Shown here: piece after piece, positions 1,607-14,585 of the stretch
Layout: each line of letters starts with the position of its first letter
Position numbering within the stretch: position 1 is the stretch's first letter
DNA from: Planctomycetota bacterium
GTDB lineage: Bacteria > Planctomycetota > GCA-002687715 > CAIWVZ01
Reading direction: 5' to 3'
Length of the DNA stretch: 64,000 nucleotides
NCBI GenBank assembly: GCA_044222185.1
Contig: JBGANV010000005.1
Location: 224,001 to 288,000, forward strand
Made by a program: the position numbers and the translations under genes
Notes under the pieces: generated by a model
What the model was told of the DNA's origin: nothing
What the model saw: only the letters and a program-made list of their open reading frames with translations
Database searches by the model: none

Positions 1607-1635
1607 TTGACACGGACGACTTTGCAGTGCAAAGT
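1607..1635 (+). promoter_or_regulatory. Sigma70 -35 box plus palindromic operator, copy 1
   Basis: TTGACA at 1607-1612, then the perfect palindrome ACTTTGCA-G-TGCAAAGT at 1619-1635, upstream of the ATG at 1662. Confidence 0.75.
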
Positions 1636-1661: not shown

Positions 1662-2285
1662 ATGGAAGTCGCCGACGCACTCGATCGCATCTCCCACATC
1701 CACGCACAGCTCGCGAAGACCGAGGTCTACCGTGGATCGCGGCCATGGCCGATTCTCGCCGCGGGCGTCGTCGGGTTCGCGGCGGCCGCCGCCCAGCCAC
1801 ACGTCGTCCCCCTGGGGGATGGCCGCGGTTTCGTCTCCTACTGGACGGTCGTGGGATCAATCGCCGCAGTCGTCTCGGCTTTCGAGATCGTCGTCGGGTA
1901 CGCCCGTCCTCGGTCGGACGTGGCGCGGCGCGGCACGCGCATCGTCGTCTCGCAATTTGCTCCGGCGCTCGTCGCCGGAGCCATCCTCACCGTGGCGATC
2001 GGTCGTACACCGGACGCCATCCCGCTACTCCCCGGCCTCTGGGCCGTCGTCTTCGCCCTCGGGCTGTTTGCCCTACGGCCCTATGCGCCGCGCGGCACCG
2101 GCTGGGTCGCACTTTTCTACCTCTGCGCCGGCGGTTTGATGCTCACTGGCACGGTGGACGACGCGAGCCTCGGAGGGTGGCGTGTCGGCGGAGTCTTCGG
2201 CGTCGGGCAATTGGCGGCGGCATTCGTCATGCACCGGGATCTGAAGAGGGATCGACATGCAGAAGAAGCCGCGCCGCAGCTCTGA
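1662..2285 (+). CDS. Hypothetical integral membrane protein (about 6 TM)
   Basis: GGAG before the ATG. Starts with MEVADALDRISHIHAQLA followed by several hydrophobic segments; overlaps the downstream regulator gene. Confidence 0.8.
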   Translation: MEVADALDRISHIHAQLAKTEVYRGSRPWPILAAGVVGFAAAAAQPHVVPLGDGRGFVSYWTVVGSIAAVVSAFEIVVGYARPRSDVARRGTRIVVSQFAPALVAGAILTVAIGRTPDAIPLLPGLWAVVFALGLFALRPYAPRGTGWVALFYLCAGGLMLTGTVDDASLGGWRVGGVFGVGQLAAAFVMHRDLKRDRHAEEAAPQL

Positions 2286-2649
2286 TACGGGCCGGTTCTC
2301 CTATGACGGTCTCGACCGCGTCCTCCACGAGAAGGCGCGCCTCGGGATCATGACGTCGCTCACGACGCGGCCGGAAGGACTCGTCTTCTCCGAGCTGAAG
2401 CAACTCTGCGCGCTCACGGACGGCAACCTCGCGCGTCACCTCGAAGTGCTCGCCGACGCTGGCCTCGTTCAAAGCTGGAAGGGGACCGACGGCAGCCGCC
2501 CGCTGACGCTGCTTCGAGTCACCGCGTCCGGGCGCGAACGGTTCCTCGAATACCTCGGCGAACTGGAGCGCGTTCTTCGCGATGCGCAGGGCGCGGCGCA
2601 GTCCCGACGGGCGATCGGCGGCGTGCCGCCGGGATTCGTCTCCGCCTGA
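2257..2649 (+). CDS. Winged-helix transcriptional regulator (ArsR/MarR-like, HTH_34 type)
   Basis: LDRVLHEKARLGIMTSL...FSELKQLCALTDGNLARHLEVLADAGLV...T.SGRERFLEYL is the typical family pattern. Confidence 0.9.
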   Translation: MQKKPRRSSDTGRFSYDGLDRVLHEKARLGIMTSLTTRPEGLVFSELKQLCALTDGNLARHLEVLADAGLVQSWKGTDGSRPLTLLRVTASGRERFLEYLGELERVLRDAQGAAQSRRAIGGVPPGFVSA

Positions 2650-2726: not shown

Positions 2727-5126
2727 ATGGAGGAACGTGAGATGGACGTCCTGAAAGCCCGGTTCGCTGGCATGTGTTTCGGCGTTCGCGACGCGCTCGC
2801 GGCAACGGAGGAAATCCGCGATCCGGCTGCGGTCACGATCTTCGGCGAACTCGTCCACAATGGCGAGGTCCGAACGCGACTGTCGAGGCGAGGCTTCGCG
2901 CAGGTTGCCGAGTCCGAGCGCGAGAGGATCCCTTCGACGCCCAAGGTGCTCATCACGGCGCATGGGATCAGCGATGGGCAGAGGGATCAGCTCGAGCGCG
3001 CCGGCAAGACACTGGTGGACACGACCTGCCCGCTCGTGCGGGACGTCCACGCTGCCGCGCGCCGCTTCCGCGACGATGGCCGATTCGTCGTGATCCTCGG
3101 GCGCAAGGGTCACGTGGAGGTCCAGGGAGTCACGGGTGATCTGACGCGGTTCATCGTCGTGGAATCGGAGGCAGACATCGCGTCCTGGGGCGAGCCGCGA
3201 ATCGGGATCGTGTGCCAGAGCACGCTCCCACCGGTCGCTTCTGAGTCGCTTCGGGCGGGCATCTCGGCGGCGAATCCCGGTAGCGACGTGGCATTCGCCG
3301 ACACCATCTGCCTGCCGACACGCCAGCGGCAGTGGGCGGTCGGCGAGATCCTCGACCGGATCGACGCGCTCGTCGTCGTCGGCGGACGCAACTCGAACAA
3401 CACGCTTCAGCTCGTGACGCTCGCTCGCAACCACGGCGTTCCCGCCGTCCACGTGGAGACCGCGGACGACCTCTCCGTCGAGGCGTTCCGCGGATGCCGC
3501 GTCGTCGGGCTGACGGCCGGGACATCGACGCTCGACCGCACGATCGACGAAGTCCACGCCGCGCTCGCGCGCATGACTCCAGCGTCGGCGACGATTCCAG
3601 GCCGCCCGCCATTCGACCCGCCGTCGATGCACGAGGCGCCGCCTCTGCCGGAGGTCTCCGACCCAACTCCGCCGAAGTCGCGTCACGCGCTGCTCCTGAA
3701 CCCCTTCTACCCGAAGGCTCCTCACGCGAGTTTCGGCAAGCACGTCCTCACTCCGTCCCTCGCATTGACCTCCATCGCCGCCGCGACACCCGACGACTGG
3801 ACGGTCAGCTACTGGGACGAGAATCTCCTCCAGGGACCTCCGCCCCTCGATCCGTTCCCGGAAGTCGTCGGCATCACCGTCCATCTCACTTTCGCGCGGC
3901 GGGCGTACGAGCTCGCGCGATGGTTTCGCTCGCACGGGGCAAAGGTCGTGCTCGGCGGACTGCACGTGACGACCTGCCCCGACGAGGCAGCCGCAAATGC
4001 CGACGCGATCGCACTCGGCGAAGGCGTGCAAGTCTGGCCTCGGATCCTCGCGGACGCGGCCTGCGGACGCCTTCAGCGCGTGTATCGCGGGACGTTCCGC
4101 CAGGCCTACGCGAACGCCCCCTCTCCCCGGCGCGACATACTCCCGCAGCGTTCGTTCCTCACGACCGCGAGCCTCATCGCAACGCGCGGATGCCACAACC
4201 GATGCGACTTCTGCTACCTGGCGACGAACGGCCTCGACATCCCGTACCAGATGCGCGACCCGGAGGACGTGGTCCGCGAATTCCTCGCGACCGATGAGCC
4301 GTACGGAGTCTTCATCGACAACAACCTCGGTTCACGGCCGTCCTACCTGCGCGCGCTGTGCGCAACGCTGGAGCCGGCCGACCGGATCTGGAGCGCCGCC
4401 GTGACGATCGACGTCGCCGACGATCCCGCGCTCGTTCGTGCCATGGCGCTTGCAGGCTGCACGGGAGTGTTCATCGGCTTCGAATCGCTCGATGGCGCCA
4501 ACCTGGATGACGCCGGCAAGCGGTCCCCGCGCCCGGCGGACTACCTGCGCCGGGTCGAGATCTTCCATGCCAACGGGATCCAGGTGAACGGGAGCTTCGT
4601 CCTTGGATTCGATCATGACGGCCCGGACGTCTTCGAGCGCACGGTCGACTGGATCGAGCGCGCACGGCTCGAGTGCGCCACGTTCCACATCCTCACGCCG
4701 TATCCGGGAACGCCCCTGTTCGAGGCCATGGAGCGCGACGGTCGCATCCTTCACCGGAACTGGGGCCTCTATGACACGGCTCACGCGGTCTTCCGGCCCC
4801 GTCACATGTCCGCGACGATGCTCGAGCGCGGATACGCGTGGTGCTATCGCCGCCTGTTCTCGCACCGCTCCATCTGGCGCCGGCGCCCGCAGCGCTTCGC
4901 GGAGCTGCCTGGATACCTCGCGATGTCGTACCTGTACAAACGCGCGAACCGCGTCTGGCCGCTCCTGATCCGCCATCAGCTCACACACGCGGTGTGGCGG
5001 CCGCTGGTCGAAGCCGCCCGCCGACGCCACCTGCGATTTCGTCGGGTCCTTCGGGCCGCGCATTCCGGCTCGTGCGAACGCCGCACGCTCCACACGGGCG
5101 TCGCCTCGGTACCGACGATCAGTTGA
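2727..5126 (+). CDS. ispH: IspH/LytB (HMBPP reductase) fused to a B12-binding radical SAM domain
   Basis: N-terminal part has AGMCFGV, VHN, AHG, DTTCPLV, GHVEV, TICLPTRQRQ, SNN and TAGTST. A Pro-rich linker follows, then VVLGGLHVT, the CHNRCDFC motif, FIDNN, GFES and ILTPYPGT. The start may be 2742 (GGAGG upstream). Confidence 0.88.
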   Translation: MEEREMDVLKARFAGMCFGVRDALAATEEIRDPAAVTIFGELVHNGEVRTRLSRRGFAQVAESERERIPSTPKVLITAHGISDGQRDQLERAGKTLVDTTCPLVRDVHAAARRFRDDGRFVVILGRKGHVEVQGVTGDLTRFIVVESEADIASWGEPRIGIVCQSTLPPVASESLRAGISAANPGSDVAFADTICLPTRQRQWAVGEILDRIDALVVVGGRNSNNTLQLVTLARNHGVPAVHVETADDLSVEAFRGCRVVGLTAGTSTLDRTIDEVHAALARMTPASATIPGRPPFDPPSMHEAPPLPEVSDPTPPKSRHALLLNPFYPKAPHASFGKHVLTPSLALTSIAAATPDDWTVSYWDENLLQGPPPLDPFPEVVGITVHLTFARRAYELARWFRSHGAKVVLGGLHVTTCPDEAAANADAIALGEGVQVWPRILADAACGRLQRVYRGTFRQAYANAPSPRRDILPQRSFLTTASLIATRGCHNRCDFCYLATNGLDIPYQMRDPEDVVREFLATDEPYGVFIDNNLGSRPSYLRALCATLEPADRIWSAAVTIDVADDPALVRAMALAGCTGVFIGFESLDGANLDDAGKRSPRPADYLRRVEIFHANGIQVNGSFVLGFDHDGPDVFERTVDWIERARLECATFHILTPYPGTPLFEAMERDGRILHRNWGLYDTAHAVFRPRHMSATMLERGYAWCYRRLFSHRSIWRRRPQRFAELPGYLAMSYLYKRANRVWPLLIRHQLTHAVWRPLVEAARRRHLRFRRVLRAAHSGSCERRTLHTGVASVPTIS

Positions 5127-6357
5127 ACGTGACGCGAACGACCGGGGTGGTCCGGACCTGGAACGCCGGATTGAACGCCACGCCCATGAGGTCGAGGGTC
5201 AGGCCCGGTGCGAGAGACCCTGGCCCGAAGGAGAGCGGACTTGCGGGGAACAGGCTGGATGGAGTCACGGGCCACGTCCAATGGATGGGGCTTCCGGGCA
5301 CGGCCGTGGGAAAGGCCGTCACGAGCGCCGTCGTGAAGGCGTCGGGATTCAGCCCGAACAGGAAGCCCGCGCCTACGGGGAGCGAGACATCGAGGCTGGC
5401 TGCCGTGAAGCCCTCGATCGTGCCCGCAGGTACGCCGGTGATCGCGAGCGTCGCGGCGCCGGCCCCGAGCGGCGTCGCCGTGAGGCGGAACGGCGGAACG
5501 ACGGGGCTCGCGCCAGTTGCCGCACCGATGACGCCCGTCGCGTTGCCCAAGAGCTGCGCCGAGCCTCCCGCATTCGGGACGCGATAAATGTCGCCGAAGC
5601 TGGCACCGACGATGAAGTTGCCGTTGGCATCGACGTCGAGAGAGTTGGGGCCGGGCGTTGCGCCGGAGGGACATAGGTTGGTCAGCACGCCACCGGCATC
5701 GAACCGCACGATCCGGTTCACCGTCAACAGCGCGCCGCACGGTCGTCCCGTGACGGGATCCATGGCAAGCCCGCTCACCGACGAGGACCCGGCGGTCCAT
5801 CCGCTGGCGAAGGGCTGCGGCACGGAGCTGCCGGCGGGGATCCGGAAGACTGCGTTGTTGGCACCGACGTAGATGTCGCCCGAGATCGGATCGAAAACGC
5901 CCGAGTTCAACGCGGTTCCCCAAGGCTGCGCGCCGGCGGTGATGGGCGTGATCGCGCCGTTGGACGGATTCAGGCGGTACACCTGCTGCGTGCCCGAGTC
6001 GGCGACGACGACGGATGGTCCGTCGAACGACATCTGGGCGATCACGCCGACGCTCGCCGGGATCAGCGCGTAGGTCGCAGTCGTGGTGCCCGTGATCGTG
6101 ACGCGGCCCACGAACCCGACGCCGCCGACGAGGAACGAGTTGGCAGTCGACGGGTCGTACAGGATGGCCTGGGTGGTGCCCGTCCCCCCAAAGCTCCCGA
6201 TGTTGAACACCGTCGCCCCGCCCGCCGCACGAAGAAGCGTGAACGACGTTGTCGAGAATCCCGTGACCCCGATGTCTCCCGGCGCCAACTGGGCCGACGA
6301 GTGCGAGGCGAGCAGGAGTGCCGACGCGGCCACGAAACAGAACGCGTGACGGTTCAT
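5119..6357 (-). CDS. Secreted beta-propeller-like protein (SMP-30/NHL-like repeats) with a distinct C-terminal domain
   Basis: GGAG 6 nt before the ATG at 6357. Signal peptide MNRHAFCFVAASALLLASHSSA|Q and repeated units such as FDPISGDIYVG, MDPVTGR and VDANGNFIVG. Confidence 0.7.
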   Translation of the reverse strand: MNRHAFCFVAASALLLASHSSAQLAPGDIGVTGFSTTSFTLLRAAGGATVFNIGSFGGTGTTQAILYDPSTANSFLVGGVGFVGRVTITGTTTATYALIPASVGVIAQMSFDGPSVVVADSGTQQVYRLNPSNGAITPITAGAQPWGTALNSGVFDPISGDIYVGANNAVFRIPAGSSVPQPFASGWTAGSSSVSGLAMDPVTGRPCGALLTVNRIVRFDAGGVLTNLCPSGATPGPNSLDVDANGNFIVGASFGDIYRVPNAGGSAQLLGNATGVIGAATGASPVVPPFRLTATPLGAGAATLAITGVPAGTIEGFTAASLDVSLPVGAGFLFGLNPDAFTTALVTAFPTAVPGSPIHWTWPVTPSSLFPASPLSFGPGSLAPGLTLDLMGVAFNPAFQVRTTPVVRVTFN

Positions 6358-6517
6358 TCGCATCTCCGAGATCGACCCGACGGCGTTCCGGCCTGCGGCG
6401 GCGAAAATGCCTGGCGGCAGGAGGAATCGACGAGTCCGTTTCCAGCGGGGCAGAGCGCGCCGCGCGGGCGCAGGCGGCACATCATAGCGAGCGGCCCTCG
6501 CGCGCCCGCCCCGCCGC

Positions 6518-7015
6518 TCAGCAGATTCCCGTTTCCTGACGCCGCTGTTCTGCGAGGAAGCCGATGATGGCTCCCGCACCCGCCCAGAAGATCCAGGCGA
6601 ACATGAAGCGGATCCGAAGCGCGCTTCCCAGGCTCACCGGCTCGAAGAGCGCCACGAAGCGAAAAAGGTGCGCGGCGAGGCTCGCGAGGATCAATCCCCC
6701 ACCGAACGTTCCGACTCCCCCCAGCTGCGAGTGCTCACGCGCGACGACCCGCCGACCGAGCCACGCGCCCAACCCGCCCCAGCATGGGTAGATCCACGCG
6801 GGCACGACGGCGATCAACGGGAGGAAGAGGAGCGCCGATACGCATCCGACGATCGCGCCCTGCCGCAGTGCGAGCGCCTCTCGGCGTGCCGCGTTGCGGA
6901 TCGCCACGTCCTCACGATCCCACTTGTCCAAGAGCTTGCGCTGGGCTTCTGCGGGAAGCTCCTCAAACCGGAGCGGCGGGGGATCTTTGACCGTCTCGAC
7001 CATCTCCCATCGCAT
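6518..7015 (-). CDS. Hypothetical membrane protein (about 4 TM)
   Basis: Charged N-terminus followed by hydrophobic helices; co-oriented with both neighbours. Start is 7015 or 7003. Confidence 0.6.
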   Translation of the reverse strand: MRWEMVETVKDPPPLRFEELPAEAQRKLLDKWDREDVAIRNAARREALALRQGAIVGCVSALLFLPLIAVVPAWIYPCWGGLGAWLGRRVVAREHSQLGGVGTFGGGLILASLAAHLFRFVALFEPVSLGSALRIRFMFAWIFWAGAGAIIGFLAEQRRQETGIC

Positions 7016-7076: not shown

Positions 7077-8129
7077 TCACGGCCCGGACAAGGCCCGCAC
7101 GGCCGCCGCCACGGCACCGACGACGGACGCCATCCGCGGATAGTCGAGCGTGTCCGGCGTATCCGACGCCTCGTGGTAGTTCGCGTTCCGATAGAACGCC
7201 GTGTCCGAAATCATCACGGCCGGATAACCGGCATCCCAGAAACTCGCGTGATCCGAGAAGTCGATCCCGGGTAGCGACCGCGGCGCGTTGATCGACCGAA
7301 CGTCGACCGTCGTCGCCGCCGCCATGGACCGCTTCACGGTCCGAACGAGCGAGGTCTCGCCGACGCGCCCCACGACGACGGCGAAATTCCCCCGCGACGG
7401 ATACAGCAGCGACAGCGGGGCGACCGGGTACCGCTGGCTTGCCGGCGCATCCGTGTAGAACCCGATCATCTCGAGGCACAGCATGGCGCGCACGACGACG
7501 CCCGACTTCTTCAGGGACTCGGCATAGACGGCGCTCCCCATGGCCGGCGCACGGAAGAACGGCGGTTCCTCCAGCGTGAAGGCCACCAGGTCGACGCGCG
7601 TCGCGAGTTTCGCGGATGCCAGGATGCGAGCGATCTCCAACAATCCGGCGACACCGCTCGCATTGTCGTCGGCGCCGATGCCCGGGCCCGCAGCGTCGTA
7701 GTGCGCGCCGACGACGACCCGCGGGCCGTCCGATGGTCCGACGTGAGCGACGACGTTCTGATACCGCTCCCGCGAAGCCGTGAAGACCTGGCGTTCGGAC
7801 GCGACCCCGGCGGACGCGAAACCACCTGCGATGAAGTCGGCGGCGAGGTCGAGGTTCTGGCGGTGCGACGCCGTCCGCGGCGCGAGGCTGACGAGGCGCT
7901 CCACCGTCGTCCGCAGACTGCTTGGATCGACGGCCAAAGTCGTCGCAACCGTCTCGACGCCGAAGATCGGCTGCGCAACGTAGAAGGCACCGCCGAGCGA
8001 GAGGGCGAGCGAGGCGACGGTGAACCGGAAGACGAAGCGGCGGTACCAGGGGCGAACACGAGGTCCCGCGGCGCGGCCCTGGGCGCCACCCGTCGCCGAC
8101 GACACCGCCGAGCCATGATTTCGTTCCAT
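7077..8129 (-). CDS. M28 family metallopeptidase, membrane anchored
   Basis: GAHYD, GADDNASG, LEE, LEMIG, FSDH and YH..SDT motifs; N-terminal TM helix. Confidence 0.92.
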   Translation of the reverse strand: MERNHGSAVSSATGGAQGRAAGPRVRPWYRRFVFRFTVASLALSLGGAFYVAQPIFGVETVATTLAVDPSSLRTTVERLVSLAPRTASHRQNLDLAADFIAGGFASAGVASERQVFTASRERYQNVVAHVGPSDGPRVVVGAHYDAAGPGIGADDNASGVAGLLEIARILASAKLATRVDLVAFTLEEPPFFRAPAMGSAVYAESLKKSGVVVRAMLCLEMIGFYTDAPASQRYPVAPLSLLYPSRGNFAVVVGRVGETSLVRTVKRSMAAATTVDVRSINAPRSLPGIDFSDHASFWDAGYPAVMISDTAFYRNANYHEASDTPDTLDYPRMASVVGAVAAAVRALSGP

Positions 8130-8294
8130 CTCGCTCCTCTCGAATCATCCGCCGCGAATCGCAAGCACGCCCCATGCCCGTAATCGCAACCCCATGTCTG
8201 CCCGAGACGTGTCGCGAAGCCAGCGGACATTCCAGGCTCGCGCGCTGGAGTCGGTTCGGACCGCGGCATACCGTGGCCCCGTTCTCGCTGATCC

Positions 8295-8462
8295 ATGCCG
8301 AATGGAGATCTCGCCCAGAGAACTCCAGCGGGGGACCCAAAAGAAACGGTCTCGAAACGGACGGCGCAAGCCGGTCCAAAGTCGAGATCGCAGGGGCTAA
8401 TTCACCACGCCGGTGAACGGAGACGCAGCGCTCCGAGCCCGTCAGCTAACCTCGCAGGCGAA
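8295..8462 (+). ncRNA. Cyclic di-AMP riboswitch (ydaO/yuaA leader)
   Basis: Conserved elements in the expected order: GCCGAA; stem TGGAG/CTCCA (8303-8327); GCGGGGGACCC; GGGGCTAA (8393-8400); stem TTCACC/GGTGAA; stem CGGAG/CTCCG; and the 3' signature AGCCCGTCAGCTAACCTCGCAGGC (8436-8459). Confidence 0.85.
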
Positions 8463-8764
8463 CGCTCGAGGCGGAACAGACGAAGGCATCGGCCGCGGAC
8501 TCGTGGCCGATCCGACGCCCGTTCCGAAACACATCATGATCCGCGCGACTCTGCTCGCGGCCCGCCGGCGCATCACGCAGCGCCGAACTTCCAGGCCCAA
8601 ACGTCACGACCACATCGCTCCCGATCAGACGTCCGATCAGGCGAGCGGTCACGCGTAGCCGCGAATTCAGGCCCATTCGCCGTCGCTGAACTGCGGCGGC
8701 CGGATTCCACATCTGTCGAGTTCTGCGACGCCGTTCGGCGTCCGCATGGAATGGAGGTCTCTTC

Positions 8765-10762
8765 ATGCTTCTCTTCGAGATCATCGGTGGCGCCTTGCTC
8801 CTCCTCGTGTTCCTCTTCCTCCGTTACGTCCCGAACAAGAGCGTCGGGATCGTGGAGAAACGCTGGGCCGCCAGGGGCTCCGTCACGTCCGGGATCATCG
8901 CCCTGAACGGCGAGGCGGGTTACCAGCCCGAGGTTCTGCGGGGTGGAGTCCATCTGCTGATGCGCGTCCAGAACCGTCTGCACATCGCACCCCTCGTGAC
9001 GATCCCGCAAGGCGAGATCGGTTACGTGTTCGCTCGCGACGGTCGACCCTTGCCCGCGACGCAAGCTCTCGCCTCGAACGTCGCCACCGGCTCCTTCGAG
9101 AACGTCCGCACGTTCCTCGTGAACAAGGGGCAGCGCGGTCCGCAGCGCCAGATCCTTCGAGAGGGAACCTATGCGATCAACCTGTCCCAGTTCGTCGTGA
9201 TCACGCGTGAGAAGACGTACTTCCTCCCTCTCGACCGCGACGACAAGGACGTCTTCGCGCGGATGTCGCGAATCATCATGGAACGTGAGGGGTTTCACCC
9301 GGTCGTCATCCGTGGCGCGGCCGACTCCGTGGGCATCGTCACCGTTCATGACGGACCTTCGCTCGCCGAGGGCGAGATCATCGCGCCTGCGGTGGGGACC
9401 GACCCGACGGACCGCGACACCTATCACAACAACTTCCAGGACGCGGAGAGGTTCCTGGAAGCCGGCGGCCAGCGGGGCCGGCAGCTCCAGGTGCTCGTCG
9501 AGGGCACCTACTACATCAACCGGCTGTTCGCGACGGTCGAGCTCACGCCCAAGACGACGGTCGACGTAGGCAGCGTCGGCGTCGTCGTCTGGTATGCGGG
9601 AAAGACGGGCACGGACCTGTCAGGAACCGACTACAAGCACGGCGAACTCGTGAAGAAGGGCGAGCGCGGCGTCTGGAGCGAGCCCCTCCTCCCCGGCAAG
9701 TACGCCTTCAACACCTACGCGGGAAAGGTCATCGTCGTCCCCACCACCAACATCATCCTCAAGTGGATCCGGACCGAGAGCGGCGCGCACCACTTCGACG
9801 AGAATCTCACCGAGGTGTCCCTCATCACGAAGGACGCCTTCGAGCCGTCGCTCCCGTTGTCCGTGGTGATCCACATCGACTATCGGAAAGCGCCGCTCGT
9901 GATCCAGCGTTTCGGCGACATCCGGCGTCTCGTGGAGCAGACGCTCGATCCCATGGTCTCCGCGTACTTCAAGAACATCGGCCAGACACGCACGTTGATC
10001 CAGCTGCTGCAGGATCGCAGTGCGATCCAGACGACGGCTGGCGAGGAAATGAAGATCAAGTTCGCGCACTACAACCTGGAGCTCGAGGAAGTGCTCATCG
10101 GCACGCCGGTGTCGCCGCCCAACGACGATCGCATCGAGGTCATCCTCGGCCAGTTGCGCGCGCGGCAGGTCGCCGAAGAGCAGGTCGAGACCTACCGCCG
10201 GCAGGAACAGGCGGCGGTGAAGGAGCGCGAGCTGAGAGAGGCCGAGGCCCGCGCCCGCCAGCAACAGGCGCTGACGGAATCCGAGATCGGCATCGCGATC
10301 CAGGGCAACGAGGGTCGCGCGGAGTACGCACGTGCGCTCCAGAAGGCGTCGCAGGTGCGAGCACTCGCCGAGGCCGAAGCGGAACGCGCGGCGCGGGTCG
10401 GTATCGGCGAGGCGATCGCGATCGAGGAACAGGTCCGGGCCTACGGCGGCCCCCAGTTCCAGCTCACACAGCAGGTCATGCAGAGGTTCGCGCAAGCCAT
10501 CGAGACGTCGCGCGTGGACGTCGTCCCCAAGATCGTCCTCGGCGGGGGCAAGGACGGTGTCGGCGGATCGAGCAACGTCCTCGAAGGCCTGCTCACCATG
10601 CTCCTCGCCGATCGCCTCGGTGACGCGACCACGGTCTCGACGACGAGCGAACGCGGAGAGGACGCGGAGCGCCTTCGCGCCGAGCTGCGCAACCGGTTGA
10701 CGGCCAAGAGGAAGGACGACACGCCGCCGGCCGATCCGGCGGCACCGAGGCCCGCAGGCTGA
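8765..10762 (+). CDS. SPFH/band 7 (flotillin-like) membrane protein
   Basis: GGAGG RBS and an N-terminal TM. Repeated GQRGPQ..ILREGTY / GQRGRQ..VLVEGTY / PLLPGKY motifs, an SPFH core (LITKDAFEPSLPLSVV) and an E/A/Q-rich coiled coil. Confidence 0.9.
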   Translation: MLLFEIIGGALLLLVFLFLRYVPNKSVGIVEKRWAARGSVTSGIIALNGEAGYQPEVLRGGVHLLMRVQNRLHIAPLVTIPQGEIGYVFARDGRPLPATQALASNVATGSFENVRTFLVNKGQRGPQRQILREGTYAINLSQFVVITREKTYFLPLDRDDKDVFARMSRIIMEREGFHPVVIRGAADSVGIVTVHDGPSLAEGEIIAPAVGTDPTDRDTYHNNFQDAERFLEAGGQRGRQLQVLVEGTYYINRLFATVELTPKTTVDVGSVGVVVWYAGKTGTDLSGTDYKHGELVKKGERGVWSEPLLPGKYAFNTYAGKVIVVPTTNIILKWIRTESGAHHFDENLTEVSLITKDAFEPSLPLSVVIHIDYRKAPLVIQRFGDIRRLVEQTLDPMVSAYFKNIGQTRTLIQLLQDRSAIQTTAGEEMKIKFAHYNLELEEVLIGTPVSPPNDDRIEVILGQLRARQVAEEQVETYRRQEQAAVKERELREAEARARQQQALTESEIGIAIQGNEGRAEYARALQKASQVRALAEAEAERAARVGIGEAIAIEEQVRAYGGPQFQLTQQVMQRFAQAIETSRVDVVPKIVLGGGKDGVGGSSNVLEGLLTMLLADRLGDATTVSTTSERGEDAERLRAELRNRLTAKRKDDTPPADPAAPRPAG

Positions 10763-10766
10763 TACC

Positions 10767-10803
10767 CGCGGCCCGCACCCCCCGGTGCGGGCCGCGCTCT
10801 TTT
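10767..10803 (+). terminator. Rho-independent terminator
   Basis: 13-bp stem CGCGGCCCGCACC-CCCC-GGTGCGGGCCGCG followed by CTCTTTT, 5 nt after the flotillin stop. Confidence 0.75.
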
Positions 10804-10925
10804 CCGCCGGCGCGAGCCCGCCAATCCCGCGCGCGGCCTCAAGTTTCGAGGGCCGGCTCCCGAAAAGGCTTCGGGGGGCATTCCGTCCCCAGATGCCATC
10901 GACCGAGGGAAAGGGAGCCGGCGAA

Positions 10926-13900
10926 ATGCCCGCGACGAGTTGGACGTGCATCGCTGCATCCGTTGATCGGATCCGCCAGTGGAAGCCCGCTTCCGTGCTC
11001 GACCTGGAGTGCCGCACGGCGCGGTTTGGGTTCGTTTGCCGGGACGTCCTCGACGGAATCGACTGCGCGTCCGACACGGCGACGCAGGGACCGGTGCGCC
11101 TCGAAGGAATCACGCCGGGAACCTCTTCCCTCACCCCACTGCACGAGAATCTCTACGACCGCGTGCACGCCGGGGATCCATGCACCGTCATCGCACGGCT
11201 GCGCGACACGTTCGACCTGATCATCCTCGGTGACGCGCTCGCCGATCTCGGCGAAGAGGACGGCGTCGATCTCCTGCGAGCTGCGCTGGACCGACTCACG
11301 TCCGCGGGCCACGTGATCGCCGTGGTCCCCGCGAGCGGCATTGCGCGCGGCGCGGGAGTCGTCGCGGGGTCGGACTGGACGGCGGCTGCGATCGAACGGC
11401 TCGGGCCGGATGGAATCACGATCCGCACGGTCGCGGGAGTGACGGACCGCGTCGTCGTCGAGTTCACGCCTGCATGCCGGCCGGCCTTGAAGCCTCGGCG
11501 AACGCCGCCCCCCGGCGCGCGGCTCACCATCGCCCTCGCGACCCACGAGTATCCGGCGACGGGAGCTCCCACGGGCGGACTCGGCGTCTACGTGCAGACG
11601 ATCGCGCGCGAGTTCGTGCGCCGCGGCCACGAGGTCCACGTCGTCACGTGTTCCCAGGGAGCCGGCCGAACGACGTGGGACGACTGCGGAGTGCGCCTGC
11701 ACGCGGTCGACCATGCGGCGCCGGACGCCCGCGACCCGGGGAGCCTTCTCGACTACAGCCGCGCCGTCGCCGAACGCATCCGCGCGTTGGACCAGACGCA
11801 CCGCTTCGACGTGGTCGAATTCCAGGAGTGGGCCGGTGAAGGCTGGGCGTATCACCCGCGTCGCGACCAGCTGCTGTCGCTTCGGATCCAAGCGCCGTCG
11901 TTCTTCGTCCGTCGTCACGAGTACGGCTCGGGATCGCCGAGCGAGTTTCGTGTGGATGAGATCGAACGGTGGCCACTGGAACGCGCCGACCTCGTCACGG
12001 CACCTTCGCGCTACATCGCCGACGTCGTGACGAAGGCCTGGTGCGTGGATGGCCCATCCGTGGTGATCCTGCCGAACGGCATCGACCCCGAGCAGTTCCC
12101 TCGAGCCGCCGATCGGCCCGAGACGGACGCGCCCCTCGTCCTTTGCGTCAACCGACTGACGCCCATCAAGGGTCCCGACGTGTTCGTCCGCGCGGCGGCC
12201 CAGGTGCACCGCCGTTTCCCCAAGGCGCGGTTCCGCATGGTCGGCCGTCTGGGCGAGATCGATGGAAAGCCCTCCGACGTCCGTCTCCGTGAACTCGCCG
12301 CCGACCTTGGGCTCCCGATCGATCGTCTCGAGATCGCCGGCGCCGCACAGCGGGATCGTCTGCCGGCGGAGCTTGCCGCCGCCGACGTCTGCGTGAACCC
12401 CTCACGAGACGAGAGCTACTCGTACACGAGTGCCGAAGCGCTCGCCGCCGGGCGTGCGTGCGTCCTCAGCGGAGGCATGGGAATCACCGAGCACCTCCGC
12501 GATGGCGACGACTGCTTCATCGTCCCCGCCGGCGATGCGGAGGCTCTCGCCGACCGGATCGTCCGCCTGCTCTCGAACGCCGGGCTGCGGCGTCGCATGG
12601 GCGCCAGCGCCCGTCGCGCCGCGCAGACGCGACTTTCGGCCGCACACGCCGCCGAACTCGCCGAAGCAGCCTATCGCGAGCGCCTCGCGGTGATCCGCGC
12701 ACGCCCCGCCGTCCCCCGCGCCGAGATCAACCTGGCGGTCCTCACGTGGAACGGGCTTGCGGACACGAAGCGCTGCCTCGAGAGCCTCCGCCGGACGACG
12801 CCCGCGCCATACAACGTCTTCATCCTCGACAACGGATCGAGTGATGGCACCGTCGAGTGGCTTCGCTCGCAGAATGATCCGGTCTGGCAGATCATTCCGA
12901 GCCCGGTGAACCTCGGCGTGGGCGGGGGCCGCACGCGGCTCATCCTCGAGATGCTCCCCCATGTCAAGGACGGCTCCTTCGCCGTCTTCCTCGACAACGA
13001 CATGGAGCTCCTCGAAGGTTGGTACCAGCCATTCGTCGATCTCTTCGCCTCCAACCCGGATGCGGGGATCGCCTCGGCCGCAGGACACGCGATCATCGTC
13101 AACGACGAGACGCGTGACCTCCTGGCCGGCCCGACGGGCGCGCCGGCGCAAGTGGACGTGGCCTCCGGCGGCTACTGCTGCTGGGTCCGTGCCGAGGCGC
13201 TCCGCAGCATCGGCGTGTTCGACCCGGCGCTCGGCCGGTTCTGGCACGAGGACGACGACTACTCCGTCCGTGCAATCCATCGCGGCTTCGAGGTCTGGGC
13301 GATCCCCGGCGTACCCGTGATCCACCACGAGCACGGAACGGGCGTCGCACTCCCCGCGGTGGCCGGCGGCGGCTCTCCGGACAACCAGCGATACCTCTGC
13401 GCCAAGTGGAGGCGCCTGGGATTCATCGACGAGCAAGGTCAGGTCATCCGCCCCGACATGCAGGCGGATGCCGCCATCGCGCGCGAGGTCGGCGAACGAC
13501 TGGGACGCACCGGCTCCATCCCTCGCGAAGAGCTGGTCCGGGCGAGCGGCGATCTGGCCGCACTGGTCCAGTCGTCGAACCTCGAAGTGCACATGGCCAC
13601 GCATCGAGCCGACATCACGCCGACGTTCGTGGCGCTTCTCGACGTCCTCGCGTCGAGAGCGGACGCCACCGGGACCTGTGATCTCGCAGAGGCCTACCGG
13701 CAGATCCGTGACGCGGCCGAGCATCATCGTCACAGCCAGGCGATGAAGACGGTCCTGGTCCTCCCGCCGGATCGCCGCGGCGCGCACGCGGCTGCGTCGC
13801 TATCCAAGCTCTGCGACGCCGCCGACTGGGACACACCGTCGTGGCTCGCGGTCGCGGGAGGCGTGTTCCGCGATCAGGGAGGCCGTGACTACTACCGCCG

Positions 13901-14585
13901 CCACCGGAAGGTGTGGGAGTACACGCAGACGTGGATGGCGCTCGACGCGGCGGACGTGCTTCGCTCCGATGCGCGCGTGCTCGTCGTCCACGCCGGCGTC
14001 GAGACGATCACGTTCGCCCTGGCACGCCGCGTGGCGTCGGTCGTCGCCGTCGACAGGTGGGGCAACCGACCCGGCGCACCGGCGACGATGCTCCGCGCCC
14101 CCGAGACGCACACACCGTTCCCCTACCCGAGCGAAGTGCTGTCCGTCCGGCCCCTGACCGACGAGCTCGACGAGTTCGAAGAGGGCGAATTCGACGCCGT
14201 CATCGTCTGCTCGCTGCACGCCTGCGGATCGGTGACGCAGGCCGGGCGACTGCTCCGAGGACTGGAGAGGGTCGTGAAACCGGGGGGCACCGGGGTTCTC
14301 GTGGCCGAGGTCATCCTGAACGGCGTGGCCAATCCTCCGTTCCTGCGGCCTCACGAGATCCTGGGTCTCCTCGATGGCACGGAGTTCGACCCCGCGGAAC
14401 CGTTCGACTTCACCATCAGCGCCGCCACACTCGATGGGTTCGTCGATGCGGCCGTCAACCCGTCCAAAGTGCCTCACCTCGTGGTGAAGCTCGGCCCGGC
14501 ACTCTTCACCTCCGGCGTCTTCGTCCTCGAACGACGGCCGGCGCCGGTCCCGATGGAGCCCGACGCCGCCGCACCTCGCGTGTGA
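10926..14585 (+). CDS. Multidomain glycosyltransferase: methyltransferase-like + GT4 + GT2 + methyltransferase-like
   Basis: GT4 motifs: EYP..GGLGVY, RLTPIKG, NPSRDESYSYTSAEALAAG. GT2 motifs: VLTWN, LDNGSSDGT, NLGVGGGR, FLDND, EDDDYS. SAM-fold-like segments at both ends (VLDLEC.. and HRKVWEY..RVLVVHAG..RVVKPGG). Start uncertain. Confidence 0.85.
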   Translation: MPATSWTCIAASVDRIRQWKPASVLDLECRTARFGFVCRDVLDGIDCASDTATQGPVRLEGITPGTSSLTPLHENLYDRVHAGDPCTVIARLRDTFDLIILGDALADLGEEDGVDLLRAALDRLTSAGHVIAVVPASGIARGAGVVAGSDWTAAAIERLGPDGITIRTVAGVTDRVVVEFTPACRPALKPRRTPPPGARLTIALATHEYPATGAPTGGLGVYVQTIAREFVRRGHEVHVVTCSQGAGRTTWDDCGVRLHAVDHAAPDARDPGSLLDYSRAVAERIRALDQTHRFDVVEFQEWAGEGWAYHPRRDQLLSLRIQAPSFFVRRHEYGSGSPSEFRVDEIERWPLERADLVTAPSRYIADVVTKAWCVDGPSVVILPNGIDPEQFPRAADRPETDAPLVLCVNRLTPIKGPDVFVRAAAQVHRRFPKARFRMVGRLGEIDGKPSDVRLRELAADLGLPIDRLEIAGAAQRDRLPAELAAADVCVNPSRDESYSYTSAEALAAGRACVLSGGMGITEHLRDGDDCFIVPAGDAEALADRIVRLLSNAGLRRRMGASARRAAQTRLSAAHAAELAEAAYRERLAVIRARPAVPRAEINLAVLTWNGLADTKRCLESLRRTTPAPYNVFILDNGSSDGTVEWLRSQNDPVWQIIPSPVNLGVGGGRTRLILEMLPHVKDGSFAVFLDNDMELLEGWYQPFVDLFASNPDAGIASAAGHAIIVNDETRDLLAGPTGAPAQVDVASGGYCCWVRAEALRSIGVFDPALGRFWHEDDDYSVRAIHRGFEVWAIPGVPVIHHEHGTGVALPAVAGGGSPDNQRYLCAKWRRLGFIDEQGQVIRPDMQADAAIAREVGERLGRTGSIPREELVRASGDLAALVQSSNLEVHMATHRADITPTFVALLDVLASRADATGTCDLAEAYRQIRDAAEHHRHSQAMKTVLVLPPDRRGAHAAASLSKLCDAADWDTPSWLAVAGGVFRDQGGRDYYRRHRKVWEYTQTWMALDAADVLRSDARVLVVHAGVETITFALARRVASVVAVDRWGNRPGAPATMLRAPETHTPFPYPSEVLSVRPLTDELDEFEEGEFDAVIVCSLHACGSVTQAGRLLRGLERVVKPGGTGVLVAEVILNGVANPPFLRPHEILGLLDGTEFDPAEPFDFTISAATLDGFVDAAVNPSKVPHLVVKLGPALFTSGVFVLERRPAPVPMEPDAAAPRV

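Follow-up and report, generated by a model that had tools for sequence, protein, structure and literature searches.

IspH (LytB) is a reductive dehydroxylase, and its product, isopentenyl diphosphate (IPP), is the substrate of UppS, so that one metabolite is common to the two enzymes. Proteins in which an IspH is continued by a second functional unit are known: in the bifunctional IspH/ribosomal protein S1 (NF000907) and in the LytB-UbiA fusions alike, IspH occupies the N-terminal part of one frame and its partner the C-terminal part. The same order is found in a gene carried by a 64,000-nucleotide stretch of DNA from a Planctomycetota bacterium (contig JBGANV010000005.1 of assembly GCA_044222185.1, positions 224,001 to 288,000 of the forward strand), hereafter called the window; here, the partner is a radical S-adenosylmethionine enzyme (rSAM). 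Both halves belong to known superfamilies, and literature searches returned no published description of an IspH-rSAM fusion or of an operon joining uppS or ispH to an rSAM gene. The reading preferred below, to which we grant a chance falling just short of even, is that the window gene arose recently, as a genuine "Rosetta-stone" fusion, from the two genes that close a conserved isoprenoid module under repressor control.

The interval 2727-5126 of the window (forward strand) constitutes a single stop-free open frame of 799 codons. That this frame joins a full IspH to an rSAM, as a first-pass annotation made from the letters of the DNA had stated, is borne out by matches to both the LYTB and the Radical_SAM families of Pfam. 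The gene probably starts at ATG 2742, 15 nt downstream of the beginning of the frame annotated earlier, rather than at 2727, because a GGAGGA sequence is found 7 nt upstream of this codon and the database copy of the protein (P0002, 794 amino acids) begins there. The GC content at codon positions 1, 2 and 3 of the gene is 0.69, 0.51 and 0.83, respectively, a pattern that speaks against a chance frame. Its parts are as follows.

2742-5126, forward strand: fusion gene lytB::rSAM, 794 amino acids, with Shine-Dalgarno sequence GGAGGA at 2729-2734
2742-3575, forward strand: LytB/IspH domain of clade A (the module-linked paralogue), from profiles, alignment and tree
3573-3576, forward strand: ATGA, likely relic of a stop/start overlap; the ATG is in frame, and the split relative at locus L015 has GTGA
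3576-3671, forward strand: proline-rich linker that once formed the rSAM's N-terminal tail, as aligned with the N-termini of stand-alone relatives
3672-4088, forward strand: Rossmann-type (B12-binding-like) domain, from the beta/alpha elements of the structure model (residues 17-155); PF02310 below cut-off
4176-4655, forward strand: radical-SAM core, with CxxxCxxC at 4191-4214
4869-5081, forward strand: C-terminal helices, conserved and highly basic, with 17 Arg/Lys against 3 Asp/Glu among 70 residues

The proline-rich linker noted in the first pass is real and equals the tail with which the stand-alone rSAM proteins natively begin, and which has a conserved ..PPL.. motif. The ATGA at the junction had been taken for an ancestral start/stop overlap, and this fits the situation in Tundrisphaera, where the two genes are separate and overlap by GTGA. 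A change of one nucleotide ahead of the ATGA would suffice to join the two frames: removal of one base from the window's CGC-ATG-A would yield a frame ending in ALAR*, with its stop overlapping an ATG.

The location of the ATGA at the junction and the nature of the genome, a metagenome-type assembly in 16 contigs, raise the question of whether an assembly or sequencing indel has falsely joined two genes. This suspicion, voiced with the original annotation, was refuted by independent contigs that cross the junction without a gap. Such contigs come from four runs belonging to three other studies (P2, P3 and P4): that of run X2 (1475 nt) spans positions 3200-4000 with 5 substitutions and no gaps, and the spans from runs X3 (3365-3787), X7 (3420-3660) and X9 (3475-3625) are equally gap-free, in a comparison that used assembled contigs, which may hide rare variants. 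Of the 14 variant sites listed, 13 (2 of them in the LytB half, the other 11 in that of the rSAM) fall at third codon positions when the fused frame is read, which indicates that both halves are read in that frame and are under purifying selection. The probability of an artefact is, in our estimate, close to nil.

The N-terminal half of the protein has the features of a complete IspH. Pfam LYTB (PF02401) matches residues 8-280 with 220.7 bits (cut-off 24.5) over profile positions 1-266 of 267, and the ispH model TIGR00216 is passed with 216 against a cut-off of 187.85. Alignment to the Escherichia coli (3KE8) and Aquifex aeolicus (3DNF) enzymes shows the three cluster cysteines and the His, Glu, Thr, Ser and Asn substrate residues to be all present; C12, H39, H74, C96, H124, E126, T161, C190, S218, N220 and S262 (counted from the 2742 start) are invariant in 44 of 44 LytBs drawn from three clades. 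These residues presumably have the catalytic and substrate-binding roles ascribed to them in the literature. Given their invariance and the TIGR00216 score, the IspH half looks functional, and the alternative of a repurposed IspH fold is unsupported, every catalytic residue being kept. The window genome contains three LytBs, counting the fusion; the other two, which answer the question of whether a second ispH exists, lie elsewhere in the genome and are 29-31% identical to the fused domain. In a quick IQ-TREE phylogeny, the module-linked LytB genes form a clade of their own (support 98), apart from the clade of the genomes' other copies. Thus, the window copy has the full-length domain, the cluster cysteines and the substrate residues in common with 3KE8 and 3DNF but is a third paralogue, belongs to a clade linked to a regulator and a membrane protein, and is fused at its C-terminus. 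The profile of the bifunctional IspH/S1 protein (NF000907) was rejected as an identity for the gene, with a score of 197.9 against 624 and coverage of profile positions 1-278 of 671 only.

A search for the LytB plus Radical_SAM architecture indicates that the fusion is very rare. Among the best 120 matches of a word-indexed search through 5.8 billion clusters, the two domains occur together in 2, the window protein and a protein designated P0003, the other 118 being stand-alone rSAMs of about 483-548 amino acids with about 67-74% identity. When the LytB part served as the query, 134 proteins of at least 439 amino acids were matched; among the 120 listed, the radical-SAM domain (PF04055) is present in the same 2 proteins, UbiA in 7, S1 repeats in 3, and an unnamed extension of approximately 260 amino acids in 108. 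An exhaustive search of 1.84 billion representatives produced no match spanning both halves among the 150 listed. The fused form is likewise absent from all of 40 related genomes, 6 of which have a stand-alone rSAM orthologue. Split orthologues, on the other hand, are co-located elsewhere: lytB lies directly upstream of the rSAM gene at loci L015 (with the GTGA overlap), L080, L064, L033 and L100.

The junction sequence of P0003 is unrelated to that of the window. Its rSAM half is 77.6% identical to the Tundrisphaera protein P0024, as against 69.5% to the window protein, and both the LytB tree (IQ-TREE, support 96) and the rSAM tree (FastTree, support 95) make P0003 and the split Tundrisphaera pair sisters, with the window protein elsewhere. 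Since P0003 pairs with the split genes, the window protein does not, and the junctions differ, the parsimonious reading of these sequences is that the two fusions are independent.

Inspection of related loci by tblastn revealed a module, recurring in several phyla, composed of a polytopic membrane protein of about 200 amino acids (named c5, or its relative c7), a regulator of the HTH_34 type, an isoprenoid enzyme and an rSAM. The window holds the full module, with the fusion as its last gene. The elements upstream of the fusion are listed below.

1607-1612, forward strand: -35-like TTGACA of the putative module promoter, from reading of the sequence; the operator spans the spacer and the -10 position
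1619-1635, no strand assigned: Operator 1, ACTTTGCAGTGCAAAGT, ahead of the c5 gene; one of two exact sites in the genome, with a motif that recurs upstream of module genes in related loci
1662-2285, forward strand: c5-family polytopic membrane protein, 207 amino acids, presumed partner of the regulator
2257-2649, forward strand: ArsR-like winged-helix regulator (HTH_34), given as the longest open reading frame (ORF), its start being uncertain; matches the regulators of other loci in tblastn
2693-2709, no strand assigned: Operator 2, ACTTTGCAATACAAAGT, 33 nt upstream of the likely start of the fusion; the other exact site in the genome

The c5 protein is 36% identical to its homologue at L080 (tblastn); it could be aligned with 20 relatives, and 4-5 of its segments are hydrophobic. 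None of the c5 and c7 proteins searched (7 of 7) matches a Pfam family above noise, the SdpI family included, and c5 has no NCBIfam match. The regulator scores 63.4 bits with PF13601, 30.3 with HTH_20 and 22.2 with HTH_5. A consensus scan of the module promoter found no full sigma-70 site.

The two operators are the only exact occurrences of the palindrome ACTTTG-N5-CAAAGT (consensus ACTTTGYAWTRCAAAGT) in the 7.08-Mb genome, and both lie within the module. A set of 141 loci without duplicates (1.03 Mb) contains the palindrome exactly at 22 sites and with one mismatch at 37, and 53 of these 59 are positioned no more than 330 nt upstream of a module gene: 21 precede rSAM genes, 11 c5, 8 LytB, 5 UppS, 5 a diiron protein (see below) and 3 c7. 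Reversed and half-swapped control patterns, run on the same loci, gave no exact site and two one-mismatch sites each. Five other genomes together have 8 exact sites, 7 of which are on the contig that carries the module, at the module itself where mapped. A further five genomes, either complete or large (Tundrisphaera, Fontivita, Archangium and two others), have no exact site; operators seen at L015, L012 and L057 carry one mismatch, and none was seen at L060 or L043. Scans of ten genomes with the exact operator brought up no further members of the regulon. From the placement of these sequences, the circuit looks like that of a dedicated local repressor. The closest described arrangement is the SdpR/SdpI pair of Bacillus subtilis (PMC2910880), in which a polytopic membrane protein holds an autorepressor of the ArsR type. 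The layout is alike: the window, too, encodes a small ArsR-like winged-helix protein beside a polytopic membrane protein, with one operator in the promoter of these two genes and another ahead of the cargo; however, the window's membrane protein has no SdpI-family match, and the cargo is metabolic rather than a matter of toxin immunity. Literature searches found no published description of a regulator/operator circuit for spare isoprenoid enzymes.

The enzymes occupying the slot next to the rSAM gene were counted in 77 rSAM loci with at least 1300 nt of upstream sequence. UppS is directly upstream of rSAM in 17 of them and directly downstream in 2, LytB is upstream in 5, and in 7 the membrane protein and the regulator are the only upstream genes. 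These counts were obtained with tblastn, which replaced a naive clustering of longest ORFs, confounded by antisense ORFs in GC-rich loci, that had detected UppS at 4 loci and LytB at 3. The module UppS passes TIGR00055 (249 against 109.55). All 5 genomes compared for UppS encode a better-scoring copy outside the module, and so do 4 of 5 for LytB; judged by sequence, the module's cargo genes are extra copies. The window genome has one IspG and one UppS. No recurrent further cargo, and no linalool-dehydratase-like (LinD-like) cargo, was found among 91 ORFs downstream of rSAM genes (from 121 selected out of 148 candidates). The link to isoprenoids that the first-pass annotation had proposed thus gains comparative support: a single slot ahead of the rSAM gene holds a second IspH or a second UppS, with one conserved operator. 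At the Acidoferrum locus L033, a second rSAM with a B12 domain, 36% identical, directly follows the module rSAM (positions 7413-8861).

The rSAM half itself matches generic Pfam domains, and no curated NCBIfam equivalog was reached by the family; a look-alike search for it returned generic names only. Radical_SAM (PF04055) is passed over residues 484-643 with 54.8 bits (cut-off 29.5), and the motif CHNRCDFC, of the CxxxCxxC form, occupies residues 489-496. The family has three invariant cysteines only, so that no auxiliary cluster is expected. A structure model of high quality (predicted local distance difference test, pLDDT, 93.2; predicted template-modelling score, pTM, 0.91) combines a Rossmann domain with a partial TIM barrel and, at the C-terminus, long basic helices, which may bind a membrane or an anionic substrate. 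Where a B12-binding domain had been noted at the outset, the model has the Rossmann domain, in which a GG.H motif is invariant in the family. The B12-binding profile PF02310 reaches 27.4 bits over residues 378-435, under the cut-off of 32.1; some relatives pass it (P0191, for example, with 42.2).

The best solved structural match of the model is AprD4 (6FD2; 22% identity, Z 29.9, root-mean-square deviation 2.6 Å for 386 residues), by a clear margin; among cobalamin enzymes, CysS, MgmA, TsrM and OxsB superpose at Z 22.9-24.3. A sequence search of the PDB retrieved AprD4 (the best, at 35 bits) and 9CCB only. In a 2026 review (PMC12931638), AprD4 is listed as not binding cobalamin, although it lies within the same similarity network; because this is the nearest structure, cobalamin binding by the rSAM half is not established. 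The fold in common with AprD4 extends over both the Rossmann domain and the radical-SAM core, whereas the window protein has the additional basic C-terminal helices and a different genomic context from that of AprD4, whose substrate is an aminoglycoside of the apramycin pathway. The AprD4 family model itself (NF033070) was rejected as an identity (35.7 against 500).

Among curated profiles, those nearest to the window protein are HpnJ (TIGR03471, 59.2 bits) and BchE (TIGR02026, 52.2 bits), and P0024 from Tundrisphaera scores 71 with BchE and 69 with HpnJ. A DUF4070 tail is common to the window rSAM, to HpnJ (hopanoid side-chain ring contraction) and to BchE (anaerobic Mg-protoporphyrin cyclase), but the scores are an order of magnitude under the equivalog cut-offs of 577.6 and 481.35, and both identities were rejected. 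No hopanoid or chlorophyll genes were found in the neighbourhood. The methylase models tried met the same fate: HpnR (TIGR04367), 32.3 against 650; PhpK (TIGR04479), 50.8 against 600; MJ_0865 (TIGR04014), 30.3 against 360; and Sden_1168 (NF038361), 32.5 against 575.

The rSAM family comprises 5167 database clusters at E ≤ 0.001, and identities of 61-75% are found across Planctomycetota, Acidobacteriota, Myxococcota, Gammaproteobacteria, Ignavibacteriota, Calditrichota and Omnitrophota. The rSAM tree mixes phyla. Taken together, the sequences suggest strong constraint combined with horizontal transfer. Within the wider family, the 1210-amino-acid protein P0191 is an MMPL/RND-type transporter (with a weak match to a sterol-sensing domain) joined to an rSAM of the B12-binding kind, whose identity with the rSAM half of the window protein is 39%, an architecture that hints at dealings of the wider family with membrane lipids.

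As to function, a tie between the rSAM and the isoprenoid pathway strikes us as nearly an even proposition on the comparative evidence. We picture the module as working in the following manner. The HTH_34 repressor would bind ACTTTG-N5-CAAAGT in its own promoter and before the cargo, and a membrane or lipid signal would cause the membrane protein to free the repressor, by analogy with SdpI and SdpR. Derepression would lead to the production of the spare IspH (UppS in other phyla) and of the rSAM. [quoted passage not shown] As for the chemistry, we lean towards a radical reaction other than methylation, namely a dehydration, a rearrangement or an oxidation, with an oxygenated C5 or prenyl diphosphate as the substrate and in concert with the reductive dehydroxylation by IspH; its likelihood is low at best. 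This preference rests on the nearest relatives, which are non-methylating enzymes that work beside oxygenated carbons. AprD3 is the partner reductase of the 1,2-diol dehydratase AprD4, the two forming a two-step deoxygenation couple; in similar fashion, the rSAM reaction could feed the fused IspH or take up its product. A prediction of the complex between the LytB domain and the rSAM gave a score of 0.01 (mark 0.32) and no answer either way.

The fusion to IspH is the strongest functional lead so far for an rSAM family without an assigned function, and it is strengthened by the translational coupling of the split forms, by the UppS alternative in the slot and by the common, dedicated operator. 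What the window adds for this family is the Rosetta-stone fusion and the count of architectures. The family can now be tested on a few candidate substrates (HMBPP, IPP, DMAPP and polyprenyl diphosphates), and the operators point to a control circuit for spare copies of isoprenoid enzymes that extends across phyla.

A different chemistry would apply if the rSAM were a cobalamin-dependent C-methyltransferase whose isoprenoid substrate, be it a C5 unit, a polyprenyl chain or a hopanoid, derives from a precursor made by IspH. Action between IspH and UppS would explain both kinds of partner, and the PhpK-type profile gives 50.8 bits. Most of the class-B radical-SAM enzymes characterised to date are methylases, according to the lists in PMC12931638. 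In a 2026 review of lipid-modifying radical-SAM enzymes (PMC13459092), the class-B layout is described as an N-terminal Rossmann domain, a partial TIM barrel with CX3CX2C and a C-terminal helix proposed for the substrate, and the window rSAM matches it. The resemblance to GrsA/GrsB, HpnP/HpnR and Gmm, as presented there, includes the lack of an auxiliary cluster, the sequences being compared through NCBIfam models only (HpnR 32/650). The review covers Tes, Mss, Gms, GrsA/B, Gmm, Cds, HpnH/J/P/R, Jaw5 and the ladderane enzymes and mentions none tied to IspH or UppS, the words IspH, undecaprenyl and polyprenyl having 0 occurrences in it. Nevertheless, none of the methylase equivalogs is reached (HpnR, PhpK and MJ_0865 included), the B12-binding Pfam score is under its cut-off, the best structural match is a non-methylase listed without cobalamin (PMC12931638), and the top profiles, HpnJ and BchE, are non-methylases too. 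We consider methylation a decidedly improbable outcome.

A bypass of IspG offers another way of coupling the two halves: a radical dehydration of a polyol of the methylerythritol phosphate (MEP) pathway would give an HMBPP-like alcohol, which IspH would then reduce. In its favour, the closest solved fold is that of a diol dehydratase that works with a reductase, and IspH is a reductive dehydroxylase. However, IspG is present in the window genome and in 4 of 5 module genomes, so that there is no gap to fill, and the bypass alone would leave the UppS partner unexplained; it appears very unlikely.

The rival that bears most directly on the preferred reading of a conserved isoprenoid module is that of co-regulation only, in which the rSAM is interchangeable cargo of a membrane-stress regulon, with a non-isoprenoid substrate, and the fusion is a neutral accident. 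Several observations in fact weigh against our reading, and some of them suit this rival as well. In 46 of the 77 loci counted, none of the module genes is found by the rSAM gene, although 12 of these 46 "lone" genes keep an operator within 300 nt upstream. Conversely, the membrane protein, the regulator and LytB often occur in the same phylum without rSAM (L091, L098, L102-L104, L107 and L108), suggesting that the rSAM is an optional, added cargo, which fits mere co-regulation as readily as a common pathway. Myxococcota loci have the rSAM without the module. Genome-wide, the exact operator is no commoner than its reversed control, so that its placement alone carries information. The substrate of AprD4 is an aminoglycoside rather than an isoprenoid, and a common fold does not mean a common reaction. 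P0003 is cut at its N-terminus by the end of its own 2.4-kb metagenome contig, and its junction is to be taken with reserve. Finally, no orthologue of the rSAM or of the clade-A LytB is present in any of 4 genomes of the same family, so that the module may have been acquired in the window genome, or the family assignment may be loose. (The window genome, G000, measures 7.08 Mb, and its family members G001-G004 2.4-3.8 Mb.) Co-regulation also accounts for the variety of the cargo (LytB alone, UppS with rSAM, rSAM alone, the diiron protein), and the GTGA/ATGA overlap makes fusion by a single nucleotide change easy; the fusion, moreover, is very rare. Against this stand the retention of two apparently independent fusions, with variants of the window gene falling almost all at third positions on both sides of the junction, the fact that the slot enzymes of known function are isoprenoid enzymes only, and the lack of recurrent further cargo in the 91 downstream ORFs. 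On balance, co-regulation alone seems to us unlikely, though it retains appreciable weight.

At the Myxococcota-type loci L039, L040 and L062, the rSAM gene is preceded by genes for a sugar transferase (Bac_transf), a histidine kinase and a response regulator of the LytTR type. The first of these is, again, an enzyme that uses polyprenyl phosphate.

The LytB clade of the isoprenoid module has a second kind of partner. The LytBs most closely related to the fused domain, some 108 of the 120 long ones listed, are proteins of 449-617 amino acids, mostly from Planctomycetota (for example, P0149, P0273, P0290 and P0357), whose C-terminal extension of approximately 260 amino acids displays an E...ExxH...E...ExxH set of ligands, as in ferritin-like diiron proteins. 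Profiles of AurF, rubrerythrin, RNR-R2, COQ7 and desaturases match the extension below threshold. A structure predicted for a stand-alone homologue (pLDDT 88) gives weak superpositions, and these only on the class of R2lox, aldehyde-deformylating oxygenase, NrdF and AurF; a Foldseek search with it returned nothing at E ≤ 0.001, the weak top rows being all ferritin-like diiron enzymes. The LytB-diiron fusions interleave with the rSAM-linked LytBs in the LytB tree, and the stand-alone diiron homologues at L139, L141 and L142 have the module operator upstream. In a sample of 401 genomes of the phylum, a diiron match occurs in 6, all stand-alone, and no LytB-diiron fusion was found, common as it is in the protein database; LytB adjoins the diiron gene at none of 5 loci confirmed by tblastn. 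Literature searches uncovered no published description of the LytB-diiron fusion.

The joining of the same LytB clade to a diiron protein in some cases and to an rSAM in others leads to the idea of an aerobic/anaerobic pair of twins. It seems conceivable that the rSAM and the diiron protein carry out one and the same undescribed step of isoprenoid-precursor metabolism, the former without oxygen and the latter with it, after the pattern of BchE and AcsF, although we regard this hypothesis as a long shot. Each partner would then have a dedicated IspH paralogue, for instance for making or recycling an oxidised C5 diphosphate destined for reduction by IspH, and the membrane-sensing repressor would switch the pair on. 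If this were true, the MEP pathway would have a conditional extra branch in several phyla.

Two other ORFs of the window deserve mention. Convergent with the fusion gene, a 486-amino-acid ORF on the reverse strand (5119-6579) overlaps its stop by 8 nt and gives faint matches to SGL/NHL beta-propellers. Further downstream, at 10785-14585 on the forward strand, an ORF of 1266 amino acids combines GT4, GT2 and methyltransferase domains.

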